From positions 33,404-97,403 of the forward strand of contig JANRKY010000130.1 of the NCBI GenBank assembly GCA_033763135.1: 64,000 nt of DNA, given 5' to 3'. The number at the start of each line of letters is the position of its first letter. Within the stretch, counting starts at the first letter, position 1. Position numbers: made by a program. Shown here one piece after another: positions 39,301-42,300 of this stretch. The stretch is from Blastocatellia bacterium (GTDB lineage Bacteria; Acidobacteriota; Blastocatellia; RBC074).

Positions 39301-42300
39301 GCGAGCGGGACCACCCGGGGCCGCGCGTGCTGCGCGCTGTCCCGCAATCGCCGCTGAAGCGCGCCCTCGCGTTTCTCTTCTTCAGCGGATCGGCGAACGG
39401 ACTCGCCTGGACCGTGACGATGATCTCGCTGACGCTCGGCCTCGCCTGGGGATGGGCCCGCCTCTTTCCCGGCCGCAATGGATACTGGGACCTCGCCGGC
39501 AGCGTCAAATGGCTCGGCGGCATGAGCCTCTTCTTCTTCTGCTACGCGCTGAGCGGCGCCCTGCTCCGGCGACATCTGCTGAAGCGAATCGAAACACAGT
39601 GGACCTGGGTCATCAGCGCCGCGCTGATGCTGCTGGGCATCATTCTGCCCGCGACGATCGGCTATCTGCTCTTCTCCGGCGAGAAGTGGTGGACGGAGGA
39701 CCTGGGCCCCTGGTTCGTCGGCAATCCCTTCGCCTGGGGCGTCAAGAATCACCGCAATCTCTACGCCTCCGTCGCCGGCGTCTGGGCGGTGTTGGCCGCC
39801 GCCCTCACCTTGCCCTGGTTTCTCGAACGAGCGCGGGAATTTTACGAACGCCCCGCGATGAAAGAATGAAAATCATCCACGAAGGCACACGAAGAAACAC
39901 GAAGAGAACGTCGGCTTCGTGTTTCTTCGTGTGCCTTCGTGGATGATTTTCCGAGGAGTCATTCATGTCGAGGCGACGCCCGGAAAGAATGAAAATCTCA
40001 TCCACGAAGACACACGAAGACGCACGAAGGTGAGGCCTCCCTTCGTGTTTCTTCGTGCGACTTCGTGGATGATTTTCCGAGGAGGCGAGATTCAGAACGA
40101 CGATCGAACAGCATTGCTCGAAGGCGAGCGCGCCGGGATGCGGTATGGGCTGGCGCCGCCGCGAACGACGACGGCGCGGAGCGCGGGGCTGCATCTGGGG
40201 CGGCAGGCGGGCGCCTCGCTCGAATTTCGGGAGCATCGCGAGTATCAGCCCGGGGACGATCTGCGGCGGATCGACTGGAACGCGTTCGCGCGCTCGGACA
40301 AGCTGACGGTCAAGCTCCATCGCGAGGAGATCAGCCCGCATCTGGATATCGCGCTCGACGGCTCGCGTTCGATGGGGCTCGCGGGGACGGCGAAATCGCG
40401 TGCGGCGATCGGGCTGGCGAGCGCCTTTGCCGTCGCGGCCGCGAACGCCGGCCACTCGCATCGCGCCTGGCTGGCGGGCGCGCGGTGCGAACCGATCGTC
40501 AATGGAACGCGGCGGCCGGCGACCTGGGAGGCCATTGAGCTCGATTACGCCGGCAGTTCGGCCGAGGGTCTGCTGCAGGCGGCGCCCTCGTTTCGACGGC
40601 AGGGGATGCGGTTGCTGATCAGCGATCTGCTCTGGATGGCCGAGCCGCTGACGATCCTGCAGCGACTGGCCGAGAGCGCCTGCGGCGTCATCGTCGCGCA
40701 CCTGCTGGCCGCGGCCGACCTGCAACCCCCTGAACGCGGCCGGCTGCGCCTGGTCGATTCAGAGACCGACGAGCAGCGCGAGATCTTCATCGACGACGCG
40801 GCGATCCGGCGCTATCGCGATGCTCTCGCCCGCCACCAACAGGCATGGAGCCAGGCCTGCCGGCAGGCGGGCGCCGTATTCATCCCGCTCGTCGCCGAAG
40901 AACTCGTCGCCGACTGGAATCTCGAAGCCTTCGTCAAAGCCGAACTGTTGACCGTCTGATGCCCGTATTCACGCTTCCAATCGCCTTTCTCGCGCTGCTG
41001 GCCGTGCCGGCGCTCGTGGCCATCTACTGGCTGCGCAATCGCGCGCGGGAGCGGCGCGTGTCGAGCCTCCTGCTCTGGCTCGATGAGCGGCAGCGATGGG
41101 AGGGCGGGCGGCGCGTTCACCGGCTGCAGACGCCGCTGCTCTTCTTTCTGGAGCTGCTGGCCATCCTGCTGCTGACGGCGGCCGCGGCCGGGCCCGTGCT
41201 GCGGGCGGGCAACGCGGCGCGCCCGCTGGTCGTGGTGCTCGACGACTCGTTCTCGATGCAGGCCGGCGCGGCGGAAAGCCCGCGTGAAAAGGCCGTCCGC
41301 GCGATCGAGGCCGAGCTGCGCGCCAATCGCTACAACTCGGTGCGTTTTCTTCTCGCCGGAGAAACGCCGCAACTGCTCGGCGAATCCGGCGAGGATCCGG
41401 CCGCGGCCCTGCGGCTGCTCCAGGGCTGGCGATGCGGCGCGGCGACGGCAAAGCTGGACGAGGCGATCGCCTTCGGATTCGAACTGGGCGGATCGCGCGC
41501 GCGGCTGCTGGTCGTGACGGACCACGCGCCGCCCGCATCCTCCGCCGACAGCGCCGACGGCGCCGACGGCGCCGACGGCGCCGACGGACGGCTGCAGTGG
41601 TGGAGCTTCGGCGCCGCGTCCCCGAACTTCGCGATCGTGCAGGCGACGCGCACCCGCCGCGATCCAGAAGATCGCGTCATGATCGAGGTCGCCAACCTCT
41701 CGTCCTCCGCGGGCTCAACCACGCTCGACATCGATGCGAACGCGCCCTTCGCTCTCTCGCTCGCCGCAATGGAGACGCGGCGCATCCTGCTGACGCTCAA
41801 GCCGGGCGCGCCGCCGCTGCGGGCGCGGCTCGGCGACGATGCGCTTCGCGCGGACAACGAACTGCTCCTGCTCCCGGATGCGAGGCCGCCCGTGCGCGCC
41901 GCCGTCCGCGTCCGCGACGCCGCGCTCCGCGCGCTGATCGATCGCGCGCTCGAATCGGCAACGGGCATCGCGATGAACGCCGAGCCCTCCGATCTCCTGA
42001 TCACCGACGAGGACGGCGCACCGTCCTCAACCGACAACCGACAACCGGCAACCGACAATCCGATTGAGCAATGGACGCTCCGCCTCCTGCGCGAACCCGA
42101 CGCCGCGAGCCTGCTCGGCCCCTTCGTCCTCGATCGGGCCCATCCGCTGACGGAAGGCCTCTCGCTCGGCGGCGTCGTCTGGGGCGCGGGGCGCGCGGAG
42201 CAGGCGCCCGGAACGCCGGTGATCATGGCCGGCAACATCCCGCTGCTGACCGATCTCGACCGGGCCGGCGCGCACGAGCTGCGGCTCCGATTGCGGCCCG

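Follow-up and report, generated by a model that had tools for sequence, protein, structure and literature searches.

Four long hairpins in the window

We analysed a stretch of 64,000 nucleotides (hereafter the window) from Blastocatellia bacterium (assembly GCA_033763135.1, contig JANRKY010000130.1, positions 33,404 to 97,403 of the forward strand), in which a long hairpin built from CACGAAG heptamers is found at several gene junctions. A first-pass annotation of this DNA had described four copies and taken them for modules that terminate or attenuate transcription, stop translation of the upstream gene, and re-initiate it downstream. All four are present, within 1-2 nt of where they had been placed: 3527-3594, 39872-39947, 39997-40073, and 42771-42848. 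They share one layout, ATCATCC-(CACGAAG-nnn)x2-3, a loop, and a mirrored arm; each arm opens with ATCATCC and continues with two or three CACGAAG heptamers. The 13-mer CTTCGTGGATGAT, with up to two mismatches, matches the window eight times, as four inverted pairs, against 2.3 expected, and none of 100 shuffles reached this number. CACGAAG itself occurs 32 times, where 10.6 occurrences are expected.

The features described here are all on the forward strand. Copy 1 (3527-3594) has two CACGAAG units in the left arm and three in the right one. It follows a UvrD-like helicase gene (stop at 3512-3514) and precedes an alanine-racemase-N/D-Ser-dehydratase-like gene, whose Shine-Dalgarno (SD) sequence GAGGA (3600-3604) stands 6 nt before the ATG at 3611, as previously reported. 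Copies 2 and 3 succeed each other between the genes of an ABC-2 permease and of a DUF58 protein, and copy 4 separates a BatA/VWA gene from a large VWA gene.

The left module of copy 2 (39840-39871) encodes the last eight codons of the ABC-2 permease, YERPAMKE, and the stop TGA at 39867-39869. Copy 2 (39868-39951) had been credited with perfect arms of 33 bp. They are perfect, and longer than claimed: the arms (39868-39904 and 39915-39951) are 37 nt long, 100% complementary, and separated by a 10-nt loop, with three CACGAAG units each at a spacing of 10 nt. The linker between copies 2 and 3 (39952-39996) is the conserved left module of copy 3. It reads CGAGGAG-tcattc-ATG-tcgaggcgacgcccg-GAAAGAATGAAAATC, that is, an SD-N6-ATG arrangement and a short open reading frame (ORF), and is also found at other loci (L037, L047, L056, L018, L009, L087, and L084). 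Copy 3 (39997-40073) is an imperfect hairpin with arms of 33 nt that are 88% complementary, and the same pattern of imperfections is found in L037. Its right flank (40069-40095) is fused in frame to DUF58 and includes an ATG at 40069 within GGATGAT, a GGAGG at 40081-40085, and an ATT at 40090. The left flank of copy 4, GAGAGAATGAGACCAATACGAA (42749-42770), provides the last three BatA/VWA codons (ERE) and the stop TGA at 42756-42758; the hairpin that follows (42771-42848) has 35-nt arms that are 94% complementary. The ABC-2 and BatA stops both lie within AGAATGA, in agreement with the earlier reading. The RNA fold predicted for 39850-40100 has an energy of -141 kcal/mol (z = -13).

Identical 15-nt flanks, GAAAGAATGAAAATC, are present at 39860 and 39983, and a tandem duplication had been proposed at 39861-40081. 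Copies 2 and 3 are just 87% identical, no closer than copies from different genomes (84-90%), and are thus two old copies rather than a recent local duplication. The supposed duplication consists of copy 2 and, after it, copy 3 at full length. Tandem arrays are found elsewhere, with three copies in L039 and two in L001.

Spread, architecture, and turnover of the family

We scanned one representative genome per species with the pattern CATCCACGAAG-N30-60-CTTCGTGGATG, which specifies only the termini, and found at least 62 loci, several metagenome-assembled genomes (MAGs) having many copies. The internal heptamers were found in these loci even if the pattern did not ask for them. The loci listed are mostly from MAGs of Blastocatellia or other Acidobacteriota, and there are also matches on contigs labelled Roseiflexus, Anaerolineae (128 kb), Glassbacteria (582 kb), Planctomycetaceae, Sumerlaeota, Verrucomicrobiales, KSB1, and others. 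The loci have GC contents of 52% to 69%, so several lineages are involved, and exact terminal 11-mers are common to contigs labelled as different phyla. The 'Heliomicrobium' loci share 90-93% identity with loci of Acidobacteria MAGs and 75-83% with the window. More broadly, the MAGs labelled Heliomicrobium or Heliobacteriaceae (L010, L020, L023, L048, and L057) show 75-93% nucleotide identity, at the kilobase scale, with Acidobacteria MAGs and with the window, and their taxon labels thus look wrong. The window itself belongs to Blastocatellia, its BatA homologue being 77% identical to a protein of a Blastocatellia MAG. Exact queries of an assembly index with proteins of the window brought up no record.

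The window has no Rfam match at the gathering score; a permissive threshold brings up only generic models of miRNA-precursor hairpins, all below gathering. A scan of viral contigs and a search of the PLSDB plasmids gave no match, hence no sign of a phage or plasmid vehicle. Literature searches by sequence returned only primer coincidences, and searches for repeats of Acidobacteria or Blastocatellia returned no description of the element.

The elements are 75-145 bases long, and their CACGAAG units are spaced by about one helical turn. In 67 distinct cores, of 57-82 nt, successive heptamers are 10 nt apart in 171 of 219 intervals and 9 nt apart in 35; the units per arm range from one to four, and 93 of the 134 arms have three. 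The core ends, ATCATCC and GGATGAT, are base-paired. An alignment of 43 three-unit copies shows that the heptamer positions and the termini are 88-100% conserved and that the 3-nt spacers and the loop vary freely. This pattern, together with the regular spacing, fits an array that proteins bind at the DNA level. The heptamers, in inverted sets of three, would then be putative sites for a transposase or HUH-type enzyme—as in the partnership between REPINs, which are hairpins made of repetitive extragenic palindromes (REPs), and RAYTs—or for a nucleoid or regulatory protein. Each of the sister families CACGAAT, CGCGAAT, and CACGGGG would have its own cognate protein. Such families, of identical architecture, coexist in one genome and swap at orthologous sites, and the identity of the terminal 11-mers across contigs labelled as different phyla points in the same direction. 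Yet, no candidate protein was found near the copies, and slippage and conversion among units could also conserve the heptamers. Besides, hairpins whose arms are tandem repeats of unrelated 7-9-nt units are numerous in these genomes, which points to a generic mutational origin. We regard a protein-binding array as quite unlikely.

The two arms of the aligned copies form standard pairs in 85.5% of the pair cells. No shuffle out of 500 reached the observed covariation score, and pairing halves when the partner column is slid. One spacer position, for example, shows CG in nine copies, UA in seven, UG in five, AU in four, and GC in three. The orthologous copies of L004 and L050, whose flanks are 95% identical, have the same right arm and differ in the left one by five clustered changes, which turn L004 into a perfect palindrome. 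This looks like one templated correction from arm to arm rather than separate point mutations. The orthologous copies of L015, L052, and L057 show 0-1 differences per 69 nt, whereas their flanks differ by 7-10%. As far as aligned copies can tell, arm complementarity is maintained partly by arm-to-arm templated correction.

Such events are also what one would expect if hairpins grew in place: a seed hairpin at a gene end would expand by replication slippage of a short unit, template switching would mirror the change in the other arm, and likeness between copies would reflect convergence or gene conversion instead of transposition. The abundance of tandem-repeat-armed hairpins in these genomes, such as the (CATTTTC)n hairpin of L104, the variable number of units per arm, the L004/L050 correction, and the continuation of the palindromy into copy-specific flanks are all in line with this scenario. 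It fits poorly with whole units of about 145 nt, with their non-palindromic flanks and shared imperfections, at unrelated sites and in different genomes (see below), and with one pair of filled and empty sites that differs by exactly the core length. Growth in place is highly unlikely as the origin of the family.

We placed the copies relative to genes using crude ORF calls, filtered by codon-position composition. Twenty copies are between co-directional genes, 12 between convergent genes, and none is clearly between divergent genes. The upstream stop precedes the core by a median of 12 nt (range 2-34), and the downstream start follows it by a median of 17 nt (14-22 nt in 20 out of 27 cases).

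Comparisons between related genomes reveal turnover at these junctions. In the filled and empty pair mentioned above, with flanks 83% identical, L048 carries a core of 71 nt between two genes; the corresponding spacer of the window (6528-6544) is 17 nt long. The residual flanks in L048 total 18 nt, such that the difference between the sites equals the core length. The flanks of the pair are too diverged to reveal a target-site duplication. L010 carries a CACGAAG element where the window has, at 16490-16521, a different hairpin, TTTGGCGTTCCGCC-cgac-GGCGGAACGCCAAA; the SD and the ATG are conserved in both, and this SD thus belongs to the host gene. Two junctions common to L058 and L060 have the CACGAAG type in one genome and a CACGAAT or CGCGAAT type, of the same architecture, in the other. 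Copies are thus gained and lost at gene junctions, and they persist between co-directional or convergent genes. A half copy with only the left flank and the left arm, abutting an SD and an ATG, was observed in L079 (196-260) and shows decay through loss of one arm.

Flanks, gene ends, and translation across the hairpin

About half of the copies consist of the core only and have no orientation signal. The Blastocatellia subfamily has in addition a left module of about 40 nt (...GGCGACGCCCGGAAAGAATGAAAAT) and a right flank (ATTTTCCGAGGAG, TTTTCCGAGGAG). Its full unit of about 145 nt—left module, hairpin, and right flank; 39944-40086 in the window—recurs with 82-88% identity in three unrelated contexts: in L037 after a PIN gene, with a convergent GH3 gene on the other side, in L047 after a SurA-like gene, and in L056. 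Since it recurs at unrelated sites, the flanks are part of the repeat. This bears out the earlier proposal that the flank belongs to the element and not to the gene. A metagenome scan with the left-flank pattern returned about eight real copies and mostly chance matches to protein-coding 'MKIIHE'.

The signals attributed to these flanks are not general properties of the family. Oriented flanks are lacking in the core-only half of the copies, and ATGA is found in the left flank of 8 out of 37 copies in the sense orientation and of 5 out of 37 in the antisense one. The TTTCC-GAGGA context also precedes genes of the window that lack a CACGAAG element (at 15522, 16521, and 37463); in L037, the SD-like right flank faces no gene. 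The upstream stops are TAA in 13 cases, TGA in 9, and TAG in 7, and most are thus not the element's own TGA.

The situation at copies 2 to 4 is clarified by three orthologous operons (L103, L104, and L105), which have the order ABC_tran, ABC-2, DUF58, and BatA, and no CACGAAG element at either junction. In L103, the ABC-2 and DUF58 genes overlap by 8 nt (ATGAATAA). The homology of the window ABC-2 protein to its orthologues stops at ...WFLERAREF, and YERPAMKE and the stop are encoded by the left module of the element. Similarly, BatA homology stops at ...HAWLIRRN, and ERE and the stop come from the flank of copy 4. At this locus, the claim that the element supplies the upstream stop is upheld. 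The DUF58 orthologues begin with MNNDDRTALL. In the window, one reads ATT CAG AAC GAC, with ATT (40090) in place of ATG, and nucleotide homology resumes at AAC GAC GAT (40096). The native DUF58 start is thus gone, and the start is now probably either the in-frame ATG of the element (40069) or ATT 40090, 4 nt after GGAGG. In L027, exactly this ATG of the element opens a gene whose product has a textbook signal peptide (MIFRAAIFCFCGLLTSDAFAQ). The VWA gene downstream of copy 4 retains its own ATG (42864), 17 nt past the core. Judging from these alignments, in tight or overlapping junctions such as ABC-2/DUF58 and BatA/VWA the subfamily flanks replace the last codons and the stop of the upstream gene, and can replace the start of the downstream one.

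Other insertions were observed in the orthologous operons. Both junctions of L103 are held by another REP-like unit, which encodes the ABC-2 and BatA tails GVPPSGGRSL..., and the DUF58/BatA junction of L104 has a hairpin with (CATTTTC)n and (GAAAATG)n arms (1185-1306). Toxin-antitoxin-like modules (DUF433/DUF5615, BrnT/BrnA) lie in the ABC-2/DUF58 and BatA/VWA junctions of L104 (3048-4014) and L105 (4406-5111, 8109-8414), which shows that these junctions collect several kinds of inserted DNA. The BatA ORF of the window (40845-42758, 637 aa) has an N-terminus about 35 residues longer than homologues of 577-604 aa, so its true start is probably further downstream. Compared with L103, an IS110-family (DEDD) transposase gene (36010-37071, within a region at 35890-37180) separates the upstream genes of the operon from the ABC ATPase gene. 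The sequence TTGGAGTTC flanks this gene on both sides (around 35891 and 37171) and is similar to one arm of the GGCGGAACGCC hairpin, which suggests that this insertion sequence (IS) may have targeted a REP-like site. This IS110-family element, 2.8 kb upstream of the repeat, was rejected as its parent IS, the ends of the two being unrelated.

Reading frames span the hairpins of the window. In copies 1, 2, and 4, an ORF of 75, 81, and 93 nt, respectively, runs from a flank ATG at or beside the upstream stop to the TGA of GGATGA. It starts at ATG 3519 in copy 1 and at ATG 39866 in copy 2, where it overlaps the ABC-2 stop (ATGA). Another ATG (39943) is in frame, through 126 nt and across copy 3, with ATG 40069 and DUF58. 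A selected intercistronic module, as proposed in the first-pass annotation, could account for this arrangement: the hairpin would attenuate transcription, and ATGA at both ends (AATGAAAAT, GGATGAT) would chain stop, bridging ORF, and re-initiation, in a coupling akin to that of MIRUs, the interspersed repetitive units of mycobacteria (PMC12548453). The common end of the three ORFs at GGATGA despite their different lengths, the frame leading into DUF58, the loss of the DUF58 ATG, the L027 gene that begins at the element ATG, and the presence of some hairpin at the same junctions in several relatives all favour such a module.

The family as a whole does not follow this arrangement. Among 11 flank ATGs, nine read through the core, against 9.3 expected, and four end at the TGA of GGATGA, as many as chance predicts; the proposed module of stop and re-initiation is thus not supported as a family-wide property. 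Cores are open in two to three of the three frames across the family, and the antisense strand has open frames as often as the sense strand. The near-equal counts of ATGA flanks in the two orientations, the prevalence of host TAA or TAG stops, and the flank ORF of copy 3 itself, which stops in the loop, also weigh against the module, as does a search for terminators. We scanned 39500-40400 with a consensus requiring a G+C-rich stem, a loop of 3-8 nt, and a U-tract with at least 5 U in 8 positions, and neither hairpin was called: the loops have 9-12 nt, and the tail, ATTTTCC, has 4 T. Bridging at the window locus is possible given its frames; for the family, selection for it is not demonstrated, and we consider the intercistronic module unlikely.

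A reading of the element as a gene for a small protein, with peptides like MKISSTKPHEEARRK..SCFFVWLRG, has a probability close to negligible. Of the 21 copies with an ATGA flank, 10 do contain an ORF of 24-27 residues closing at GGATGA. In the other 11, the ORF is interrupted or not in frame. Moreover, copies differ in frame (IIHEG vs ISSTK), read-through is at the chance rate, and the peptide is dictated by the palindrome; we rejected this candidate.

A probable non-autonomous palindromic repeat and its relation to known systems

We think it probable that the CACGAAG hairpins form a dispersed family of non-autonomous palindromic repeats, of the kind of REPs or miniature inverted-repeat transposable elements (MITEs), which is gained and lost at gene junctions and tolerated at the 3' ends of genes. 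Copies would be tolerated at junctions because they abolish the expression of neither gene. In an mRNA, 3' exonucleases should be blocked by a perfect 33-37-bp duplex, which RNase III should also accept as a substrate. Once co-transcribed, the 33-37-bp stem would give a very stable mRNA hairpin, most plausibly a barrier to 3' exonucleases and/or an RNase III site, which would uncouple the stability of the two cistrons. Terminator activity, if any, would be weak.

Several observations weigh against this explanation. The 8-kb loci and the 64-kb window revealed no transposase partner, and no gene recurs near the copies, only abundant unrelated families. Inverted single arms lying far apart, the mark of an autonomous parent, are absent from the sequences examined. 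A target-site duplication could not be delimited; sequences beside the cores tend to be inverted rather than direct repeats. The palindromy often runs past the conserved end into sequence specific to each copy (L046, L053), an unexpected trait for an element whose termini are fixed. The excess of G.U pairs on the sense strand is not significant (73 vs 57, p = 0.19; also 43 vs 33), and selection at the RNA level is thus not demonstrated. Hairpin constraint alone does not explain why heptamers are far more conserved than spacers. Finally, the presence of different hairpin families at the same junction across genomes could mean that a hairpin is selected there, and not merely tolerated. Phased heptamers, sister families, and re-use of junctions raise the question whether certain operon junctions need a hairpin or a putative enzyme targets them. 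Since the reading as a REP- or MITE-like repeat leaves heptamer conservation, sister families, and junction re-use unexplained, both the protein-binding array and the hairpin selected at junctions stay alive as readings.

The element resembles several known systems without matching any of them. REPs lie for the most part between ORFs that are unidirectional or convergent, and are likely to be RNA elements (PMC3733652). Like REPs, their mosaic clusters (BIMEs), and REPINs, the CACGAAG copies are short dispersed palindromes at co-directional or convergent junctions, rarely in promoter regions; they come as singletons, dimers, and clusters, with several families per genome, and probably form mRNA hairpins (PMC3733652). 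REPs are short imperfect palindromes of 20-40 nt, tagged at one end by an unpaired GTAG or CGTC. Unlike them, the consensus of the 43 copies has no such tag, each arm is a phased array of two or three heptamers instead of being itself a small palindrome, and the stem has 30-37 bp rather than the 5-13 bp of REPs. Moreover, no RAYT (Y1 HUH transposase) or TIRYT gene was seen near the copies in the loci and the window. Terminal inverted repeats, small size, lack of coding capacity, and multiple dispersed copies are traits shared with MITEs. The Correia/NEMIS repeats of Neisseria and the ERIC (enterobacterial repetitive intergenic consensus) repeats of Yersinia are also non-coding, 70-150 bp long, with long inverted arms, placed beside coding regions and co-transcribed, and Correia/NEMIS hairpins were proposed to act via RNase III cleavage (PMC2229807). 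They differ from the CACGAAG element, for which neither a target-site duplication (TA or other) nor an IHF site nor a related full-length IS was identified. In addition, their arms flank a unique centre, whereas the CACGAAG arms meet at a short loop.

Two further systems concern the coding potential of repeats. MIRUs are direct repeats, not palindromes. Their internal ORF overlaps the neighbour gene by 4 nt and is thereby coupled to it, an arrangement believed to render insertions harmless (PMC12548453). The likeness lies in the intercistronic position and in the ATGA overlaps that link ABC-2, the hairpin-spanning ORF, and DUF58 in the window, but this geometry is found in a minority of the CACGAAG copies and is not above chance in the family. 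Rickettsia palindromic elements (RPEs) insert in frame inside genes and have a CGTC tag (PMC3733652), and fusions of repeats to ORFs have been noted (PMC2229807). The CACGAAG copies are likewise palindromic repeats turned coding, since they supply the tails YERPAMKE and ERE with their stops and the N-terminus MIFR..., but they do so at gene ends and not inside genes.

The architecture itself recalls another type of repeat. The short tandemly repeated repetitive (STRR) sequences of cyanobacteria are contiguous 7-nt tandem repeats, intergenic, that can pair as hairpins. Both systems are intergenic arrays of heptanucleotides able to form hairpins, but the CACGAAG units are separated by a variable 3-nt spacer and make a closed palindrome with conserved termini. 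Integron attC sites, which have R''/R' core sites (RYYYAAC ... GTTRRRY) and occur in cassette arrays, were rejected, because there is no GTTRRRY at the ends and the neighbours are conserved operon genes in element-free relatives. The CACGAAG element is thus an unusual variant of bacterial intergenic repeats and not a new kind of system. It illustrates how a selfish or semi-domesticated element can remodel gene ends, with two C-termini and one start codon rewritten in a conserved ABC-transporter/DUF58/BatA operon. It also matters for annotation: these repeats create spurious small ORFs and over-extended ORFs in Blastocatellia genomes, and blur start sites such as that of DUF58.

A broader, and rather improbable, reading is that the CACGAAG hairpin belongs to an undescribed superfamily of 'phased-heptamer palindromes' (CACGAAG, CACGAAT, CGCGAAT, CACGGGG, and others) spread over several phyla, whose arms would be recognised by putative proteins that mobilise or install hairpins. 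If so, the specificity of these proteins would diversify, and they would target gene junctions and displace resident hairpins, in a partnership like that of REPIN and RAYT with a different chemistry. One subfamily would carry ready-made stop and start signals and split overlapping genes without silencing them.

Other palindromes were observed in the window. The CACGGGG sister family has two copies (17927-18002 and 20842-20896) of the same architecture, with units spaced by 9 nt and the ends AACCACGGGG...CCCCGTGGTT; co-directional genes flank one copy, convergent genes the other. REP-like hairpins of the form TTTGGCGTTCCGCC-n4-GGCGGAACGCCAAA, followed by TTTCC-(G/A)AGGA and a gene start, lie at 15490-15524, 16490-16521, and 22373-22404, and related units are found in L103 (5087-5120, 7768-7810). 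A large palindrome at 19095-19326, after a gene that ends at 19092, has 55-nt arms made of tandem GTCGGT(T/A) heptamers around a 122-nt centre. Finally, a palindrome of GCGACGCG units with an 8-nt spacing (29028-29172) fills the spacer between a gene end at 29017 and a gene start at 29175.

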